A stretch of DNA of 64,000 nucleotides from an uncultured Chloroflexia bacterium (GCA_963765765.1 CAVXYC010000010.1:234076-298075); one strand, 5' to 3'. Counted from the stretch's first letter, positions 22,729-45,279 are shown. The notes: generated from the sequence alone by a model not told the origin. A program made the numbers and translations.

Positions 22729-23730
22729 ATGTCGTTGTTGAATCCGCGCGTTCTCATCGGACTGGTCGTAAGCGTTATTTGTCTCGTCTTCGTCCTTCGT
22801 CAGGTGAACTTCGCCGAGCTCGTCGAGACACTCGGTCGCACCAATTTATGGTGGGTGGCGCTGACGGTGATCCAGCTCATACCGGCGATGTGGCTCAAGG
22901 CCTATCGCTGGCGATTGTTCTTTCCGGATCAGGCGGCGGCCAAGCGCGCGGCGCTGCTACCCGCCCTATACATCGGGTACATGGTCAATACCATCGCCCC
23001 ATTGCGCATGGGCGAGCTAGTGCGCGCCTACCTGGTAGGTCATTACGACCGACTGGGCGTGAGCACCGCGGTCGGCACGATTGTTCTCGAAAAACTGTTC
23101 GACGTCGGATCGTTGATCGTCATCTTTGTCATTCTCGCCGCGCTGGCGCCGCTCCCCGACTGGGCAAATGCCGCCGCGATCGCGACTGGGCTCGGATTGG
23201 CTATAGGCGTGGCGGGCACGATCTGTCTGGTGGTGGCGGAGCAGCGCGTCCTGGGCCTAATTCGGTTCTTCGAAAAGCGAATTCCGATAATCGATCGCAT
23301 GCAGGCGAGCAATCTGGCCGCATCGTTTGTTGACGGACTTCGATCGATTCAATCTCCCCGGACGTTGTTCTGGGCCGTTGTCTGGTCGGCTGTGCTCTGG
23401 CTGGGTGGGGCCATGACACTCGCGTTTGGGTTCCTCGCAGTGGGAATCTCGCTGACGCCCGAAATGGTCTTCTTCCTGCTCGTGGTGACTAATCTAGGCA
23501 TGGCCGTGCCCTCAGCACCCGGGTACGTCGGTGTTTATCACGCCCTTGTCGTGGTCGGGCTGGCCGTGTTTGGAGTGCCCGAAACCACCGCCCTGAGTGC
23601 GGCGATTGTCCTCCACGCGGCAGTCTTCGGCTTCTTCCTGGTTGGTGGGATGTTCTATCTCTGGCGGGGGCGGTTCTCACTGGCCCAGCTCATCACGGGA
23701 GCTCGCGGAACGGAGCAAGCCGCCCATTGA
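22729..23730 (+). CDS. UPF0104/lysylphosphatidylglycerol synthase TM (flippase-like) protein
   Basis: RW, N...P.RMGELVRA, EKLFD, PSAPGYVG. Confidence 0.85.
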   Translation: MSLLNPRVLIGLVVSVICLVFVLRQVNFAELVETLGRTNLWWVALTVIQLIPAMWLKAYRWRLFFPDQAAAKRAALLPALYIGYMVNTIAPLRMGELVRAYLVGHYDRLGVSTAVGTIVLEKLFDVGSLIVIFVILAALAPLPDWANAAAIATGLGLAIGVAGTICLVVAEQRVLGLIRFFEKRIPIIDRMQASNLAASFVDGLRSIQSPRTLFWAVVWSAVLWLGGAMTLAFGFLAVGISLTPEMVFFLLVVTNLGMAVPSAPGYVGVYHALVVVGLAVFGVPETTALSAAIVLHAAVFGFFLVGGMFYLWRGRFSLAQLITGARGTEQAAH

Positions 23731-35451: not shown

Positions 35452-38126
35452 TTGCATCAGCACGTCGCTGACCAGCTCAGTTTTGGCGGCTCTGAGTTCG
35501 TTCCGATGTCGCCCCTTCGGCGGCAGTATCTCGACATAAAACAGCGTTACCCCGACGCGCTCTTGCTGTTTCGGCTGGGCGATTTCTACGAGACGTTCGA
35601 TGAGGATGCGAAGACCGCGTCCAGCGTGCTGGAGATCGTACTCACGCAGCGAGACATGGGGCAGGGCGCTCGTGTGCCAATGGCGGGCATTCCATTCCAC
35701 GCCGCGGACACATACATCGGTCGGTTGCTTGATGCAGGTCAGCGGGTGGCGATGTGCGAGCAGATTGGCGAGTCGGCGGTGCGCGGCCTCATGGAGCGGC
35801 AGGTCGTACGTGTCCTGTCGCCCGGGACGATCGTCGAAGAGCACCTCCTGCACTCGCCGGCCAATAATTTCCTCGTCGCGCTGGTGTTCGGGGAAAACTC
35901 AGTCGGCCTCGCGGCAGCGGAAGTGAGCACGGGCGTTCTGACATGCACCATGGCTCAGGGAGTGGGTTGGCAAGAGCTCATCCAGGCTGAGCTCGCTCGA
36001 CTGGCCCCGGCCGAGTGTGTCACCGTGGACGATAGCGTCTCCCAGGCCAGAGACCTTGTGCCCGAAGGTTGCCGTGTAACGGCTCGACCGACATCTGACC
36101 TCTCGGATCGGAACGTCCTGGCACGTCTAAGAGATCATTTCAGCGTCCCATCGCTGCAGCCTCTCGGGCTGGACCAGGAGCCGATCGCGGCCCGCGCGGT
36201 TGCGCTGGCGGTCGGATATGTGGCCGATACCGTACCTGGCGCCCTGGCAACACTCGATCGACTCCAGAGCTACTCACTGAGTCGCTACATGATGCTCGAT
36301 AGCGGAACGCGTCGGAATCTGGAGCTTACGGCCAGTCTGCGTTCCGGCGGCAAAGAGGGTTCCGTGCTGGGTGTACTCGATCAGACCTGCACGGCCATGG
36401 GGGCTCGCTGCGTGCGTCGCTGGCTGACCCAGCCTCTGCTGGACACCGCCGAGATCTCGAACCGACATGACAAGGTCGAAGCTCTCGTTTCCGGATCGCT
36501 CGTCAGGGCACGCCTCCGAGAGGCGCTCGACGACATTCCCGATCTCGAGCGACTGAGCACTCGGCTCGCTCAAGCGACCTTGGGCCCGCGCGGCCTCTTG
36601 GCCCTGGCGGATGGATTGGTGCGGCTTCGCGACGTCGTCACAGAGACTCAAGAGGTTCCGCTGCTTTCCTCCGCGGCTGAGATGCTCACAGGATTCGATG
36701 AGCAAGTCGAGGAAGTTCGATCAACAATCGCCGACGATCCGCCCGCCGTCTTGAATCCGGGGACGATTCGGAGTGGCGTTTCACGTGAGCTGGATGAGCT
36801 GCGGGCTCTCGTCGGCGACACGCGCTCCTGGATAGCCACGCTGGAGGGACAGGAGCGCGAACGCAGCGGAGTAAAGAGCTTGAAAGTCGGGTATAACCGG
36901 GTGTTCGGTTATTACTTGGAAGTCAGCCAGGCAATACTAGCCCAGTCAACTGACTACTATCAACGTGAGCAAACTGGTGCCGAGAACGTCGGCGATCACC
37001 TCGCAAAGCTCGGCTACACGCGCAAGCAGACGCTGACCAATGCCGAACGATACGTCACCCGCGATCTCGAAGAGTACGAGAAGCGCGCCTCGACGGCGCA
37101 GGATGAAGTGGATCGACTGGAACGTCGACTCTTCGGCAGTCTGCTGGCTGACCTCGGAGAACATGCTCGGCGCATCGCAGACGCTGGCGCCGCGATCGGT
37201 GAGATCGATGCGCTAGCCTCGTTTGCCGACGTGGCCACACGTCAGCGCTTCACTCGCCCCGACCTCGTCGAGGATGCGACGCTTGAGCTGGAGGGGGCGC
37301 GACATCCGGTGGTGGAGGGGACGCTCGGATTCGGTGAGTTCACACCCAATGACATCACGCTGGACGATGAGCGTGGGCGCATCATGCTTGTGACCGGTCC
37401 CAACATGGCTGGCAAGAGCACCTTTCTTCGCCAGGTGGCCATTGCAACGATTCTGGCTCAGGTTGGCTCGTTCGTTCCGGCGACTTATGCGCGTATCGGA
37501 ATCACTGATCGCGTTTTCACCAGGATCGGTGCTCAAGACGATCTGGCGGGACGACAGAGCACGTTCATGGTAGAGATGGTGGAGACGGCTCAGATCTTGC
37601 GCGGCGCCACGTCTCGGAGCCTTGTCATCCTGGATGAGGTGGGACGTGGCACGAGCACGCACGATGGTCGGGCGGTAGCGCAGGCGGTGCTCGAGTACAT
37701 CCACGATGATCCGCGACTGCGCTGTAGGACGCTGTTTGCCACGCACTATCATGAGCTGGCTGATTTAGCTGAACAACTCGCCGGCCTTCAGCCCGTCCGA
37801 CTGGAAGTGCTAGAGCAAGGCGCCGAGGTCATCTTCCTTCATCGCGTGGTGCCCGGCGGGGCTGACCGCAGTTATGGCGTGTACGTTGCCCGACTCGCCG
37901 GCGTTCCCGCACCGGTGGCCAACCGTGCGCAGGAGATTCTGGACGAGCTGGAGTCCGGCTCAGCTCGACCGACCGCGGCGCCGGCCTCGCGAGGCCACCT
38001 CACCGAGAACCGGCAGTGCGACGCCTGAGGACGCTGGAGCCAATGCACCTGACGCCGCTGCAGGCGCTGGAGGAGCTCATCGTGCTCCAAACGATGGCGA
38101 ATGAGGACGCCGCGGAGAGACCGTGA
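35452..38126 (+). CDS. mutS: DNA mismatch repair protein MutS; apparent frameshift near 38005 separates the C-terminal tail
   Basis: GDFYETF, GPNMAGKST, STFMVEM, DEVGRGTS, FATHYHEL; the tail ...MHLTPLQALEEL is in the next frame. Confidence 0.95.
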
Positions 38127-39745
38127 CGATCTCCGGACTCTCGGGCGACATCCGCGTCCTGGCACCCTCGGTGGCCGCGCGCATCGCGGCCGGCGAAGTG
38201 GTGGAACGCCCCGCCTCGGCCGTCAAGGAGCTCATCGAGAACGCGCTCGACGCGCAGGCGCGACGCATTGAAATCGACGTGGATGGTGGCGGCATTGACC
38301 GCCTGGTCGTCGCCGATGATGGTGTTGGCATCTCATCTGACCAGCTCACGACCGCATTTCAGCGTTACGCTACCAGCAAGCTGCGAGACGATGAAGAGCT
38401 TGCGAGCATAGGCACACTCGGTTTCCGGGGCGAGGCGCTCCCGAGCATCGCCGCCGTCTCGCACACGACGTGCATCACACGCACGGCAGCGGAGGCCGCT
38501 GCAACGCGTCTAACCGTGAGCTACGGACAGCCCGGCGAGATCTCCAGAATGGCGCGAGGCGTGGGCACCACCATCATCGTTGAAGATCTCTTCCAGCAGA
38601 CGCCGGCGCGACGCAAGTTCCTTCGCGGACGAACCGCGGAGGCCGGGGCTATCAGCCAGGTCGTCCAGCAGCTCGCGCTCACGAGGGCCGACGTTTCCTT
38701 TACGCTTCGAATAGATGGTCGAGTTACCTTCGAAAGCTCCGGAGACGGCGATCTGAGTCGCGTGTCGGCGACCGTGCTGGGTGTCTCGAATATTGCGCTG
38801 CTCCTGGCTGTCGTCGGCGACGATGGGCCGTCGCGAGCGTCCGTGTCCGGCCTGCTCGGTCACGCGATGCTCCATCGACCAACGCGCGGTGGGATCACCT
38901 TCATCGTGAACGGTCGGTGGGTTCAGAGTCGGCCGCTCAACTTTGCCGTCGAAGAGGCGTGCCGTACCTGGACGCCGACTGGACGATTCCCCATCGCCGT
39001 ATTGAAACTCGATCTGCCGGCCGCGGAAGTGGATGTGAACGTGCATCCGCGGAAGACGGAAGTGCGTTTTCAGCGTGAACGAGCCGTGTTTGCGCTGATC
39101 CAACGTGCCGTCTATGAAGCCGTGCTGGCAGCCCAGAATGACGAAGCTGCTCACGGCATGCTGCACGATGAGCATGATGCTGAGCGGCCGCTCCGGGTAG
39201 TGGGCCAGGCTGCCCAGACGTACATCATCGCCGAGGGCGAGCACGGGCTCTACCTGGTGGATCAGCATGCCGCGCACGAGAGGGTGATGCTGGAACGGAT
39301 ACTGGAGAACGGCAGGCAGCGGGCACTGCAGTTTCTCATGGAGCCGGCAGTGGTCCCCTTCTCGGCCGGACCTGGCGGAACGCTCGACGAGACCGTATCG
39401 GAGCTCGGCTCGCTCGGATACGAATGTGAGCCATTCGGCAATGATGCGCTGCTGGTGCGTTCGATTCCGGCGGCGCTTGTCGAGCGACAGCCGCTGCGGG
39501 TGCTGGGCGATACGTTGGAGGAGCTCAGTCGTCGGCCACGCGCCACCGACTGGCGTCAGCTCATCGCTGTGCGACTAGCCTGCCACAGCGCCGTACGGGC
39601 CGGTGACGCGCTCGAGCCTACGGAGATGCAAGCGCTGGTTCAGCAGCTCGGCGAAGCGGAGATCTGTGGCGCCTGCGCCCACGGTCGGCCCACGGCGATC
39701 CTGATGAGCCACGAGGATCTCGAGCGACAGTTTGGTCGGCGGTGA
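38123..39745 (+). CDS. mutL: DNA mismatch repair endonuclease MutL
   Basis: IAAGEVVERP, GFRGEAL, DVNVHP, DQHAAHER, ACHSA, CAHGRP. Confidence 0.95.
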   Translation: MTISGLSGDIRVLAPSVAARIAAGEVVERPASAVKELIENALDAQARRIEIDVDGGGIDRLVVADDGVGISSDQLTTAFQRYATSKLRDDEELASIGTLGFRGEALPSIAAVSHTTCITRTAAEAAATRLTVSYGQPGEISRMARGVGTTIIVEDLFQQTPARRKFLRGRTAEAGAISQVVQQLALTRADVSFTLRIDGRVTFESSGDGDLSRVSATVLGVSNIALLLAVVGDDGPSRASVSGLLGHAMLHRPTRGGITFIVNGRWVQSRPLNFAVEEACRTWTPTGRFPIAVLKLDLPAAEVDVNVHPRKTEVRFQRERAVFALIQRAVYEAVLAAQNDEAAHGMLHDEHDAERPLRVVGQAAQTYIIAEGEHGLYLVDQHAAHERVMLERILENGRQRALQFLMEPAVVPFSAGPGGTLDETVSELGSLGYECEPFGNDALLVRSIPAALVERQPLRVLGDTLEELSRRPRATDWRQLIAVRLACHSAVRAGDALEPTEMQALVQQLGEAEICGACAHGRPTAILMSHEDLERQFGRR

Positions 39746-40377
39746 GTGTGGTGCCCGTGAGCGGCTCCAAGGGTCAGGGCAAGTCGCTAATGACCCAGAC
39801 CGACTATGATTTTGAGACTCTTCCGGATCTTCTCCGCCCCGGACTGCAGCTTGTCTTCGTTGGGATCAATCCAAGCGTTTACTCAGTTCAGCGTAGTCAC
39901 TACTTCGCGCGATCAACCAGTCGATTCTGGCCGGCATTTTCCCGATCGAAATTGAGTCAGCCTGTACGCATGGCCCTTGGCCGGGAAATGCTCGGATTCG
40001 AGGACGACGTGCGTCTGCTCGATTTCGGCATCGGCTTCACCGATGTGGTCAAGACTCCCAGCAGTAACGCTGCATCGCTTAAGCGCTCGGATTACGCTCT
40101 ATGGGCCCCGCGTCTCACGGAGCGGCTGGTGTGGTGTGACGCCTCAATGGTGTGCTTTCATGGCGTCACTGGCTACCGCGCATTTGCCCGATACGCACTC
40201 GACTCGCCCAAGGAGCCCACGCCACTGGGATTACAGGAGCGCATGCTCGGAAACGCGCGAATCTTCCTGGCGCCAAACCCCAGTCCAGCAAACGCGCACT
40301 TCCGCGTGGAAGACCAGACGCGTTTCTACGATGAGCTGAGCGACCTCCTCGAGACGGAACAGAGCCGCATCCCGTAA
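39742..40377 (+). CDS. mug: Mismatch-specific uracil/thymine DNA glycosylase (MUG/TDG family)
   Basis: LPDLLRPGL..VFVGINPS, RFW, PNPSPAN. Confidence 0.85.
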   Translation: MSVVPVSGSKGQGKSLMTQTDYDFETLPDLLRPGLQLVFVGINPSVYSVQRSHYFARSTSRFWPAFSRSKLSQPVRMALGREMLGFEDDVRLLDFGIGFTDVVKTPSSNAASLKRSDYALWAPRLTERLVWCDASMVCFHGVTGYRAFARYALDSPKEPTPLGLQERMLGNARIFLAPNPSPANAHFRVEDQTRFYDELSDLLETEQSRIP

Positions 40378-41476: not shown

Positions 41477-42802
41477 CTACGGCGTGACCATGGCAACAGG
41501 CTGCTGTGCCTGGGCCGTCGTCAGGTAACGAATCGCCTCAGTGATCGCGGGATCGTTCGTTGGGCCGGGCGTGAGCGGACCTTCTACCGCGATGTCAGGC
41601 TGAAGTCCCTGACCATGGATGGGTACCTTTCCAGGCGTGAGCCACTGCGCAGAGGTGATCCTCAAGCCGGAGCGGTCGCTTAGCTGGCGAACCGTCTGCA
41701 CGGTACCTTTGCCAAAGGTCTTCTCTCCGATGAGCGCACCGCGTCCGCTATCTCGCAATGCCGCCGCGGTAATCTCCGATGCGCTGGCCGATCCACGATT
41801 TACGAGGACCGCTATGGGCAGGCTCGTCATGAGTCCAGGCCCTCTGGTGCGGTACTCCTGGTCATCGCCATTTGCGCCGCGCTGGTAAAAAACCACGCCG
41901 TCGCTCAAAAACTGACTGGTGATCTCCACTGCTGATGTCACGAACCCGCCCGGGTTGGATCGCAAGTCCAGCACGATCGCCGTCGGCTGTTGATCCAGCA
42001 GCTCTTTCATCCGGTTTGTAAGCTCGGTTGGCGCTTCTCGGCTGAAGCTGGCAACGCGGATGTAGCCAATCTGGGAATCCAGCATGCGGGCGCGAACAGC
42101 CGACACACGAATCTCGGCCCGGGTCAATGTGAATTGCAACGGCTCAGCGACGCCTGCACGCTCGATCGTAAGACGGACGGTCGTGCCGCCCTGACCGCGA
42201 ATAAGCGGAACGACATCGTTCAAGTTCCATCCGCGCACGTCCGTATCGTCGACGTGTGTCACGACGTCATCGGCCAGAATTCCGGCCTGCTCAGCAGGGG
42301 AGCCATCAATGGGCGCCACTACGTGTATCGTGCCGTCCTTGCCGTCCACCGAGATGCCCACACCCTCGAACCGACCACGCAAATCCGCATCCGAGATCTC
42401 GCGCTGCGCGGGTGTGAGGAACACCGAATTTGGGTCACCGAGCGTATTGAGCATGCCGCGGATGGCGGCGAAAATCATCTGCTCGCGATTCACGTTCTCG
42501 CGCGGCAGAAACTCTTGATTGACATAATTCCAGGTTTCCCAGAACGCCTGGACGTGAAGGCGGTCGGTCTCGGAGAGGTCGGCGTTCACCGGTGCGACCG
42601 CATGGATCCCTAGACGACTCGGATCGATTCCGAACTGTCGGATAATTGGGCTCAGTGCGTGCTTGCCCTGAACGGCGTCGGCCTGGCCGTAGAGATATCC
42701 GGAGGAGAAGAGGAAGAAGAATGTCAGCGCGAGAAAGATCGAGCTCCAGCGCGGTTCGAATATCGACCGTGGCCGCGGTGGGCGCTGGGAGTTATAGGGC
42801 AT
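41477..42802 (-). CDS. S41 family carboxy-terminal processing peptidase (PDZ)
   Basis: LDLRSNPGG, SASASEI, GEKTFGKG. Confidence 0.93.
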   Translation of the reverse strand: MPYNSQRPPRPRSIFEPRWSSIFLALTFFFLFSSGYLYGQADAVQGKHALSPIIRQFGIDPSRLGIHAVAPVNADLSETDRLHVQAFWETWNYVNQEFLPRENVNREQMIFAAIRGMLNTLGDPNSVFLTPAQREISDADLRGRFEGVGISVDGKDGTIHVVAPIDGSPAEQAGILADDVVTHVDDTDVRGWNLNDVVPLIRGQGGTTVRLTIERAGVAEPLQFTLTRAEIRVSAVRARMLDSQIGYIRVASFSREAPTELTNRMKELLDQQPTAIVLDLRSNPGGFVTSAVEITSQFLSDGVVFYQRGANGDDQEYRTRGPGLMTSLPIAVLVNRGSASASEITAAALRDSGRGALIGEKTFGKGTVQTVRQLSDRSGLRITSAQWLTPGKVPIHGQGLQPDIAVEGPLTPGPTNDPAITEAIRYLTTAQAQQPVAMVTP

Positions 42803-42904: not shown

Positions 42905-43981
42905 CTAATCCGGCTCGGGGCCCTTCACCGGTAGCGCAATTCGCTGGGTCTCCGGCAGGCGGTCCAGCAGCTCCTCCGGAGACGCGCTGAAGCGATCGAA
43001 CACATCGCGCAAATGCGACGTCTCATAGTGCGCGTAGATGCGCTTCGTGGTTTCGGGAGAAGCGTGACCGAGGATGTCCTGGACTTCGGAGAGCTTGGCG
43101 CCACGGTTCAGCATCGTGCTGGCCTTGGTGTGCCTGAAATCGTGTGGTGAGATGCTAATGCCGCAGGCATTGCCGTAGCGGTGCACCGTCTTCCAGATCG
43201 ACTGGGTGGAGAGTCTATACGATTGGCCGGACGGCGTGGGCTTTCCGCGTGCCACGTCGTGCCGAAGAAACAGCGGATAGAATGCGTCGGCGCGAGCGCG
43301 CAGATAGTCCCGAATGGCCGCCAGCGTATCGTCGTCGAAGAAGACGATACGCTCTTTGTCGCCCTTGCCCGTGATGAGCGCCTGGTTGGCGTGGCCATCC
43401 TGGATGTCGGATCGATTCATGCGCGCCACTTCCTCTCGCCGCATCCCGGTGCAAAAAAGCGTACGCATCAAGGCCCGATCGCGCAAGAGCTCGCGCCTCG
43501 CCTCGCCGCGCCGGTCGCTCGGGTCGGGCAGGGGAATTGCATCGACATAACTCACAACGACCGGCAGTCGCTGGTCGATTCGAGGCGTCCTATACGGAAT
43601 GCGTCCGACGACCTCGCGCAAATTGTCGCGCATGCGCTCAAACTGCAGATCCGGTGGCGCCAGTCGTCGCCGAACGAGAAATCGAAAGAATGCGCGCGTT
43701 CCGGCCAGATACGTCGTGATGGTGAAACGTCGCTCGCGACCGTACTGCTTGATCATCCAGCCGTAGAAACGCTCCAGCACGTCATCGTCGAGCGCATCGA
43801 TCGAAACCTGCCTGGGATCGATCTTCTGCGATTCCAGGAACTCCACAAACCGGCCGAGCGCGGTTTTATAGGTTGTCCGCGTGCGGGGCGACTTGCCAAC
43901 GAGCGATTCTTCGAAATCATCGATCGCCGCGGCAATCAATGGATAGTCAGGACGCTCATGGACGGCCTCGTGCGCTGTCAC
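42905..43981 (-). CDS. Tyrosine recombinase (Xer-like), 358 aa
   Basis: TGMRREE, GKGDKER, PHDFRH, LGHAS..TT.IYAH catalytic residues. Confidence 0.92.
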   Translation of the reverse strand: MTAHEAVHERPDYPLIAAAIDDFEESLVGKSPRTRTTYKTALGRFVEFLESQKIDPRQVSIDALDDDVLERFYGWMIKQYGRERRFTITTYLAGTRAFFRFLVRRRLAPPDLQFERMRDNLREVVGRIPYRTPRIDQRLPVVVSYVDAIPLPDPSDRRGEARRELLRDRALMRTLFCTGMRREEVARMNRSDIQDGHANQALITGKGDKERIVFFDDDTLAAIRDYLRARADAFYPLFLRHDVARGKPTPSGQSYRLSTQSIWKTVHRYGNACGISISPHDFRHTKASTMLNRGAKLSEVQDILGHASPETTKRIYAHYETSHLRDVFDRFSASPEELLDRLPETQRIALPVKGPEPD

Positions 43982-44070
43982 TTGGAAAGCATAGAGTCCG
44001 GGGCTCCGTGAAATTACGCTCGATTAGATACACACGCGATACAGAAGTGCGCGGCCGGCTATCGTGGCTA

Positions 44071-44100
44071 TGGTAGATATAATTAGCATTATCGTAACCA
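44071..44100. other. dif-like recombination site candidate
   Basis: (T)GGTAGATATAA-TTAGCA-TTATCGTAACC(A): 11-6-11 layout with inverted ATAA/TTAT inner arms, in an AT-rich patch upstream of the recombinase. Confidence 0.65.
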
Positions 44101-44120
44101 ATGGATAATGATTGAAGTGG

Positions 44121-45245
44121 CTATGATCGCGCAATTCGGTAGATCTTGGTTATTCCAGCCACGTAGATAGCGCCATCGGGCCCATTGGACACATCCAGCC
44201 GGCAATCCGCCGCGAGATCTTCTACGATCTGAACCTGGTCGCCATTGGTGCCACCAAACCGGAGTCGACGCATCACTCCGACGTTCCACAGGCACTGGAA
44301 CGCGTCGCCTTGGTATTCAGGAAACTGATCGCCGCGATAAAACATGAACCCAGACATGCCCAGGCGCTCTGCTCCCGAATTCCAGATTGGATCGCTGTAG
44401 CGCGGATCGCCCGGTGCGCCAATGACACCTGGCCAGCCGTAGTTCCCGCCGGGCTTGATGAGATCGAGCTCGTCGAAGCCCTTCGGGCCGTTGTCCACGC
44501 TATAGATGGCGCCTGTCCGCGGATGGAAATCGAATCCGTATGGATTGCGCAGGCCCATGGCGTACACCGGCGTCCCGGCAAAAGGATTGTCCGAAGGAAC
44601 GCTCCCATCGTCATTGATACGGATCATTTTTCCCTGTAGACCGTCCAATTTCGGCTCGCCGCTGGGCTCGTCGCCTGCCTGTCCAGTTCCTATGTAAAGC
44701 TTCCCGTCTGCCCCGAACCTCATTCGCCCACCGTTATGTGAACCTTTAACATCCGGAGGGATCTTGTCCAGAATCGTGATCGTATCCGTGCCGACGCCGT
44801 TCCTTTCGGTCATGCGTACGACGCGATTGAAGTCGATCTTCCCGCCTTTGTTCGGCACGGCGTAATAAAGATAGACCCAGCCGTTTTCGCTGAATCGAGG
44901 ATGGAGCACCAACCCGAGGAGCCCCTGCTCTGCTCCCTTGGCGACGTCCAACGAGGCAAAGGGCTCCTCGCGGAGAACGCCGTTCTGAGCGATGCGTACC
45001 TGGCCCTTGTTCACCTCGACGAAGAAGAGCCGACCGTCCGGGGCGAACTGGAGCGACACCGGAAGCTGGACGCCGTCGACGTACGTCTTCGGCTCCACGG
45101 CAAGCGGCTTCGGAGTAATCGCCGGTGGTGGGCTGGTTGGCTCAGCCGGGGGATCAACGGGAGGACTGGCCGATTGACACGCCACCGTCGTCACGGCAAT
45201 GGCAACTGCGATCAGGCCGCTCGTGAGATGTCGCGAGACCCACAT
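44121..45245 (-). CDS. PQQ-dependent sugar (glucose/sorbosone) dehydrogenase lipoprotein
   Basis: Lipobox-like TTVAC; EQGLLG, HNGGRMRFGADGKLY, GLRNPYG, GGNYGWP. Confidence 0.9.
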   Translation of the reverse strand: MWVSRHLTSGLIAVAIAVTTVACQSASPPVDPPAEPTSPPPAITPKPLAVEPKTYVDGVQLPVSLQFAPDGRLFFVEVNKGQVRIAQNGVLREEPFASLDVAKGAEQGLLGLVLHPRFSENGWVYLYYAVPNKGGKIDFNRVVRMTERNGVGTDTITILDKIPPDVKGSHNGGRMRFGADGKLYIGTGQAGDEPSGEPKLDGLQGKMIRINDDGSVPSDNPFAGTPVYAMGLRNPYGFDFHPRTGAIYSVDNGPKGFDELDLIKPGGNYGWPGVIGAPGDPRYSDPIWNSGAERLGMSGFMFYRGDQFPEYQGDAFQCLWNVGVMRRLRFGGTNGDQVQIVEDLAADCRLDVSNGPDGAIYVAGITKIYRIARS

Positions 45246-45279
45246 GGTGCGGCGCAATTATAGCCCGAGCAAGCGAGGC

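Follow-up and report, generated by a model that had tools for sequence, protein, structure and literature searches.

Several described Xer systems work with a single recombinase. XerH is one Xer-type recombinase encoded near a site of ~30 bp with inverted arms and a 6-bp centre, and the same protein sits on both arms. Other tyrosine recombinases can coexist in XerH genomes. The difSL site is 31 bp long and has unequal arms, and XerA works without FtsK. At dif itself, which has an XerD and an XerC arm, one arm is nearly invariant and the other variable. XerH/difH is known from Helicobacter and Campylobacter (PMC3325230, PMC5241119). XerS/difSL of streptococci and lactococci is a single-enzyme, FtsK-dependent system (PMC1914069), archaeal XerA is a single recombinase whose dif has similar arms (PMC3646895), and XerL of the Legionellales is a single recombinase, the Coxiella site lying immediately beside the xerL gene (PMC9765430). 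In the canonical two-enzyme system, most xerC genes lie close to dif, and xerD genes lie close to the origin (Kono et al. 2011, PMC3025954). Here we set beside these systems a 28-bp dif-like element and the adjacent gene for a tyrosine recombinase, found in a 64,000-nucleotide stretch of DNA from an uncultured Chloroflexia bacterium.

For the phylum Chloroflexota, searches of the full-text literature gave no Xer/dif description beyond the dif sites predicted in three Dehalococcoides genomes (Kono et al. 2011, PMC3025954). Lineage-specific Xer-like subgroups, named Arch1, Cyan and Cand, were described by Smyshlyaev et al. 2021; the word "Chloroflexi" does not occur in the main text of that paper, which was the part searched.

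The stretch, which we call the window, is G000:C10:234076-298075. Its assembly, G000, has 33 contigs totalling 6.49 Mb and is 92% complete with 6.9% contamination; its relatives in the dataset are Chloroflexota metagenome-assembled genomes (MAGs). We conclude that the element is very probably a dif-type site with a dedicated Xer-family recombinase, widely conserved in Chloroflexota. With about even confidence we take it to be the chromosomal dif-type core site of the recombinase encoded 90 bp away. The palindromic site is most likely the place where that recombinase unlinks joined daughter chromosomes. The parts of the locus are as follows.

42905..43981, minus strand: Xer-family tyrosine recombinase gene, an open reading frame of 358 aa with a GTG start, recognised by Pfam domains and orthologs

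43982..44120, no strand: AT-rich intergenic region of 139 bp that holds the site, between the stop of a glucose/sorbosone dehydrogenase-like (GSDH) gene and the recombinase start

44072..44099, no strand: 28-bp dif-like core, with left arm 44072-44082, centre 44083-44088 and right arm 44089-44099

The site starts 90 bp upstream of the recombinase start codon, where GC content (44050-44149) is 0.45, against ~0.6 in the surrounding DNA. A sequence-only reading of this DNA had proposed that a 30-mer in an AT-rich patch ~90 bp upstream of a 358-aa recombinase has the 11-6-11 layout of dif, with near-symmetric arms, and acts as the core site of the adjacent enzyme. The 30-mer (44071-44100), the patch and the gene all lie where that reading put them, and the 28-bp core fits the layout. 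The arms are inverted, as it had said. Their symmetry is weaker than it had stated, with only 7 of 11 positions in agreement. The window contains a single copy of the 30-mer, and 100 shuffles yielded no match at three or fewer mismatches. The proposed role as a core site is upheld by what follows: the site is conserved, single-copy and 11-6-11, has co-varying arms and lies outside any mobile context.

The recombinase carries a PF00589 Phage_integrase domain (1.6e-29) and an N-terminal SAM-like domain, PF02899 (Pfam). Its GTG start lines up in alignment with the ATG start of the ortholog from the same genus. Residues R181, K206, H280, R283, H306 and Y316 are invariant across the 23 orthologs of alignment A2, from which row L085 was excluded (stop codon in its reference). 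The two-domain build and the R-K-H-R-H-Y set place the protein in the broad Xer group of simple tyrosine recombinases. It falls below the curated NCBIfam cut-off of all four equivalogs: XerC (147.9 bits against 335), XerD (146.8 against 330), XerA (147.6 against 220) and XerS (80.1 against 267). Against solved structures, the family profile matches XerA (4a8e, 7e-35), XerD (1a0p, 3e-27) and XerH (5jjv, 4e-18).

Like XerH/difH, the Chloroflexota module has its recombinase gene close to a site whose inverted arms flank a 6-bp centre; unlike it, the protein belongs to a different family, the XerH match being weaker than those to XerA or XerD, and every closed or near-closed Chloroflexota genome searched also encodes a conserved XerD-like protein. 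As with XerS/difSL (PMC1914069), the gene lies beside the site and inheritance is vertical, but the protein scores far below the XerS cut-off, and the site is 11-6-11 with arms that are perfectly symmetric in several lineages. The best structural match is to archaeal XerA (4a8e, 5hxy; PMC3646895), whose cut-off is missed, and the host here is a bacterium with an FtsK gamma domain. The canonical XerC/XerD/dif system also combines two conserved Xer paralogs, encoded close to the site and to the origin respectively, with a 28-bp 11-6-11 site that has ATAA/TTAT inner motifs and occurs once per chromosome (PMC3025954). It differs in that both of its equivalog cut-offs are widely missed (147-148 against 330-335 bits), and in that the Chloroflexota arms are symmetric and co-varying and their sequence is not like that of E. 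coli. XerL/dif of the Legionellales likewise pairs a lineage-specific recombinase with a ~30-bp, low-GC, partly palindromic, non-coding site with varying flanks (bioRxiv 10.1101/2021.09.12.459815, PMC9765430). However, the XerL lineage is unrelated, and XerL was established by genetics together with a mobile element whose integration target is the site (PMC9765430), whereas the Chloroflexota module is known from sequence. The features by which a dif was recognised in the XerL paper are a length of ~30 bp, low GC, a partial palindrome, a position near the terminus, non-coding DNA and varying flanks (PMC9765430); the Chloroflexota site has all of them, the terminus position only in part. Adjacency of gene and site, common to the XerS, XerH and XerL types, is seen here at a distance of 90 bp.

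Conservation of the gene was surveyed in 41 related genomes, 11 of them of high quality. Orthologs with 54-85% identity are present in 35 of the 41 and in all 11 high-quality genomes, and the recombinase is vertically inherited, in a housekeeping context. About 10 of the 41 have a second match. The ortholog in G001, of the same genus, is 85% identical as a protein. There the 30-mer is retained at 30 of 30 positions within diverged intergenic DNA, which has ~100 extra bases between site and gene. This island of identity argues that the site is a real element and points to purifying selection on it.

Sites of the form GGTAGAtATAA-N6-TTATCtcTACC scoring at least 29 bits lie 0.02-3.7 kb upstream of the gene at 9 of 39 gene-bearing loci (531 kb scanned), namely those of G000, G001, G007, G031, G030, G026, G005, G012 and G025. 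For a broader view, 185,579 species genomes were scanned, and the best 80 loci among the 135 relatives recovered were analysed. Almost all are labelled Chloroflexota or Chloroflexi, and the remaining few are probably mislabelled bins. A fixed rule was applied (11-6-11, inner triplets TAA/TTA, at least 7 of 11 arm positions complementary). Within 4 kb upstream it found one site at 36 of the 80 loci (36 sites, 271 kb); in an equal downstream flank it found sites at only 2 of 80 (2 sites, 277 kb), both GC-rich and unlike the others. The expectation that a related motif would be found beside Chloroflexota orthologs was thus borne out. Some variants escape the rule, having inner ATTA/TAAT or a TAT end (L192, L197, L220 and L228). 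What lies between site and recombinase depends on the lineage (nothing, an aldo-keto reductase, a Rieske protein, a methyltransferase, a Zn peptidase or an HD protein), and the genes flanking the far side of the site vary by lineage too. The recombinase is therefore the only constant partner of the site. Two other searches were set aside. A strict ATAA-N6-TTAT search upstream of 29 other orthologs returned G001 only, and wider flanks and looser models were needed. A generic scan for 10/11 inverted repeats gave 37 upstream and 27 downstream and was swamped by GC-rich hairpins.

The site is also unique in the assembly. When the 6.49-Mb assembly was scanned with an arm matrix built from eight related sites, the window site among them, that site scored 34.1 bits and was the sole place above 19; the next best reached 18.8. 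This second-best place, C20:476249-476276, is 2.4 kb from an integrase fragment (C20:478636-479460), and it was rejected as a second site, its score falling in the tail of chance values. With up to three mismatches allowed, a whole-genome pattern search gave a single site in 9 of the 41 genomes, and its reversed-pattern control gave none in any of the 41. In G032 the pattern site and the recombinase gene are on separate contigs, and in G004 the site is at a contig end, with no recombinase gene seen there. Ten closed or near-closed genomes (G041-G050) were also used; two of these, G049 and G050, each consist of one large contig taken to be circular. The AGTAGAACTAA-type pattern matched in four of the five of these that were searched, at one site each. 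One site per chromosome is thus the rule, with exceptions in G041 and G047. In the G000 assembly, ATAA-N6-TTAT occurs at 27 places: 19 strictly and ~3 loosely belong to a multi-copy family described below, one is the window site, and nothing notable marks the others. Neither this census nor a scan with E. coli dif found another single-copy dif-like site in that assembly, and an E. coli-type XerD arm is present at none of the 27 places. The window site shares 14 of 22 arm positions with E. coli dif. Because 432 places in the genome score exactly 14 and 65 score higher (best 16), this likeness is at noise level in a genome-wide scan and was dropped as evidence. Architecture and its conservation carry the weight, not likeness to E. 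coli dif.

The two arms of a site behave as a pair. Lineage-specific arm sequences include GGTAGATATAA, AGTAGAACTAA, ACTAGATATAA, ATCAGATATAA, GCTAGATATAA, GTGAAAGCTAA and ATGTCATGTAA. The two arms of one site change together between lineages, while the 6-bp centre is variable and mostly T....A. Among 30 distinct sites, the mean difference between the arms of one site over the outer 8 positions was 2.57, against 4.59 with shuffled partners, and none of 10,000 shuffles reached the observed value, in a test biased by the detection rule, which limits within-site arm mismatches to 4. Perfect 11/11 palindromes make up six of the 30, and they include at least 4 different arm sequences. Unlike the shuffle figure, perfect palindromes with several arm sequences are unaffected by that bias. 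Since the arms change in step and six sites are perfect palindromes, the pattern points, indirectly, to one protein binding both arms.

In the mechanism we propose, two monomers of the Xer-family recombinase would bind the two inverted 11-bp arms, and two such sites on a chromosome dimer would synapse. The conserved Y316 would then cleave where the 6-bp centre meets the arms, and two pairs of strand exchanges would convert the dimer to monomers near the end of replication, probably under the control of the genome-encoded FtsK translocase, whose gamma domain is encoded at C20:200835-201011. Sole binding of the arms by this recombinase, dimer resolution and the involvement of FtsK are steps that we only infer.

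Several results weigh against this reading, beyond the bias of the shuffle test. The arms of the window site itself differ at four positions. Under the fixed rule, 44 of the 80 orthologs have no upstream site. An additional site, distant from the recombinase gene, is present in each of two closed genomes (G041:C1:1077263-1077290 and G047:C1:2698441-2698468). That in G047 is a perfect palindrome of the left arm; it is 0.32 of the chromosome from dnaA, on the opposite side from the gene-linked site, which is at 0.33 and coincides with an abrupt skew step. The extra site and the step hint at a large rearrangement or a replicon fusion.

Terminus position gives a mixed result. The sequence-only reading had offered the site as a terminus marker, to be checked by GC skew, and all skew results here are local cumulative GC skew around the site. 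In G005 (C1) skew is +0.040 over 200 kb to the left and -0.028 over 200 kb to the right, and the maximum at 689,487, a flat top, is 18 kb from the site at 671,534. In G012 (C5; +0.045 and -0.040) the maximum at 369,895 is 42 kb from the site at 412,269. Skew is weak in G007 (C71), where the maximum at 66,116 is 43 kb from the site at 23,192, and weak in G000 (C10; 0.01-0.03), where the maximum at 277,469 is 0.7 kb from the site at 278,146, with only 20 kb of contig beyond the site and similar end effects on C30 and C32. G030 (C4, site at 441,980) shows no switch within 200 kb on either side. In G047 skew steps from +0.10 to +0.02 exactly at the site (1,165,037) with no sign change, and the maximum is 129 kb further on. 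Skew is negative on both sides in G045, where the maximum is at 2,363,284, the switch at ~2.355-2.363 Mb and the site at 2,439,986, ~77 kb or 2% of the chromosome away. It is negative on both sides for 100 kb in G044, which has no maximum in the 200-kb stretch, so that the site (2,267,873) is at least 100 kb from one. The offset between dif and the skew switch is usually 0-1.39% of genome length, with outliers below 3% (Kono et al. 2011, PMC3025954).

Distances from dnaA, worked out by hand from gene coordinates, put the recombinase gene at 0.42-0.50 of the chromosome in 7 of the 10 closed or near-closed genomes (G041 0.49, G042 0.42, G043 0.46, G044 0.47, G045 0.50, G049 0.47 and G050 0.47). 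The other three are G046 (0.34), G047 (0.33) and G048 (0.23). The site is terminus-proximal in most genomes tested and is not a precise terminus marker. The earlier proposal gains only partial support: a switch lies within 0.7-43 kb of the site in G005, G012, G007 and G000 (weak, a case that we count on neither side), and none coincides with it in G030, G044, G045 and G047.

A further point against a single enzyme is a second Xer-like gene. The recombinase had been called lone, which proved wrong: the G000 assembly has 21 PF00589 matches, and among them is an XerD-like gene (C29:40998-42026) whose 343-aa product has all catalytic residues, as read from its sequence. This protein scores 268 bits for XerD, 266 for PRK00283 and 238 for XerC, below the cut-offs and far above the site-linked recombinase, to which it is 28% identical. 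The gene is single-copy in 38 of the 41 relatives, a count that includes an unpublished genome, G006. It is present in 10 of the 10 closed or near-closed genomes, always alongside the site-linked gene. In systems of the XerS, XerH and XerL type no second housekeeping Xer partner is expected to be required or encoded, and here a conserved XerD-like gene is found. The claim of a single recombinase consequently cannot draw on the lack of a partner and depends on arm symmetry and gene-site linkage.

The phyletic pattern fits a two-enzyme system too, given this co-conservation. In an arrangement of the XerC/XerD type, the site-linked protein would be a divergent XerC on one arm, with the XerD-like protein on the other. 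We regard this as the main rival and a serious one, possible but on balance unlikely. In its favour, the site-linked gene (35 of 41) and the XerD-like gene (38 of 41) are both retained across the relatives, and in G041, G044, G046 and G047 they are the only two matches at E <= 1e-10. Hand arithmetic on gene coordinates puts the distance between dnaA and the XerD-like gene at 3.8-16% of the chromosome in every one of the 10 closed or near-closed genomes, and the other gene is beside the site, a layout that matches xerC near dif and xerD near the origin. Within the window's own order, moreover, one arm is almost constant and the other varies, as the XerD and XerC arms of dif do. Yet the two proteins share only 28% identity, and six sites are perfect palindromes with arms changing in step; two DNA-binding specificities are hard to reconcile with such symmetric, co-varying arms, which are the chief objection to two enzymes. 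No dif-like repeat was found within 11 kb of the XerD-like gene on C29, whose neighbours are a histidine kinase, a response regulator, an InhA-like protein and MazG. As between one enzyme and two at the site, our confidence is evenly poised for one and lower for two.

Two further explanations give the site another purpose. The recombinase could bind it for autoregulation or some other recombination, while the XerD-like enzyme resolves dimers at an unrecognised site. The lack of a skew switch at the site in G030, G044, G045 and G047 would suit this, as would the better match of the XerD-like protein to both the XerD and XerC models and the several loci at which the site is just 56-110 bp upstream of the protein-match start. 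However, site and gene are anywhere from 56 bp to 3.7 kb apart and the genes lying between them are unrelated, which is ill suited to an operator role, and no promoter-like match lies over the site on the gene's strand. One site per genome leaves no partner for intramolecular inversion or excision, and the G000 assembly has no second single-copy dif-like site where the other enzyme might act. We consider this explanation improbable. Still less credible, and in our view very improbable, is that an unrelated transcription factor uses the element as its operator, or that the element is the relic attachment site of an old mobile element, its linkage to the gene reflecting only shared regional ancestry. 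Short AT-rich palindromes are typical of operators, and the relatives are not independent, so that inherited synteny inflates the linkage counts. Against this, the far-side genes vary and the recombinase is the sole constant, the 11-6-11 form with TAA/TTA inner triplets is the layout of a tyrosine-recombinase core site, no mobile-element genes are nearby, and the site is single-copy, with no attL/attR pair.

With this module a large and mostly uncultured phylum gains a concrete, testable candidate for a dimer-resolution site and its enzyme. Such a site can help to orient or check MAG assemblies near the terminus, although skew and site are sometimes apart. It is unusual for a symmetric, gene-linked site to occur in genomes with two conserved Xer paralogs, and this combination allows a direct test of whether one enzyme acts or two. 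More broadly, and only tentatively, we suggest that in many Chloroflexota chromosome dimers may be resolved by an undescribed, phylum-specific Xer family that acts alone on a symmetric, gene-linked dif, that the universally co-conserved, origin-proximal XerD-like protein would have a different housekeeping job, and that a mobile family of 22 sites in G000, described below, may exploit one of the enzymes.

The genes around the locus are those of a chromosomal backbone, the nearest on each side being the following.

44121..45257, minus strand: glucose/sorbosone dehydrogenase-like (GSDH) gene, the upstream neighbour, with synteny kept in G001 and G007

41477..42802, minus strand: S41 (Ctp-type) peptidase with a PDZ domain, the downstream neighbour, also just downstream of the recombinase in G007, G026 and G031

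Within ~8 kb the neighbours are MutS, MutL, a UDG-family protein, the S41 peptidase, GSDH, a GT87-like protein and glutamate dehydrogenase. All are housekeeping genes, and no phage or insertion sequence (IS) genes were found among them, in agreement with the sequence-only reading. MutS, MutL and the UDG-family gene form a DNA-repair cluster at window positions 35452-40377, 2.5-7.5 kb from the recombinase gene. A phage or integrative and conjugative element (ICE) integrase with its att site was rejected, there being no mobile-element genes nearby and the site being single, with no duplicated core. A promoter was rejected too, no sigma-70-like match overlapping the site on the gene's strand, and so was a hairpin, which folds no better than shuffles (z = -0.57).

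Second copies of the recombinase, with 51-58% identity and on another contig, are found in G002, G005, G008, G009, G014, G019 and G023. The copy in G005 (C5:33748-34689, L225) has its own distinct 11-6-11 site 66 bp upstream. Such a copy may be a module for a second replicon. In addition, G042 (closed chromosome OZ253578.1) has more than 20 copies of a tyrosine recombinase of ~334 aa, each sharing 25-29% identity with the XerD-like query, and G049 has several tyrosine recombinases of that size. These copies look like an expanded mobile element.

The multi-copy family in G000 consists of 22 near-palindromic 11-6-11 sites formed by GTTCCGATAA, a G- or C-rich centre and TTATCGGAAC. Its arm matches the right arm of the window site at 9 of 11 positions. 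The relatives G001, G007 and G029 have 0, 1 and 2 such sites. In G000 they lie at C23:452364-457714 (six), C20:550706 and 551908, C1:183139, 192516 and 193678, C7:226-45119, C27:45974, 84340 and 88179, C30:95082 and C15:661403. The family may be a mobile cassette system with sites that resemble dif arms. On C23 the six sites share one orientation and bracket single genes (PFK-like, substrate-binding-like and SnoaL-like by eye), as in a cassette array. One site is 0.4 kb upstream of a short Xer-like gene (C30:93976-94689), and two are 1.3-2.5 kb from an integrase on C20.

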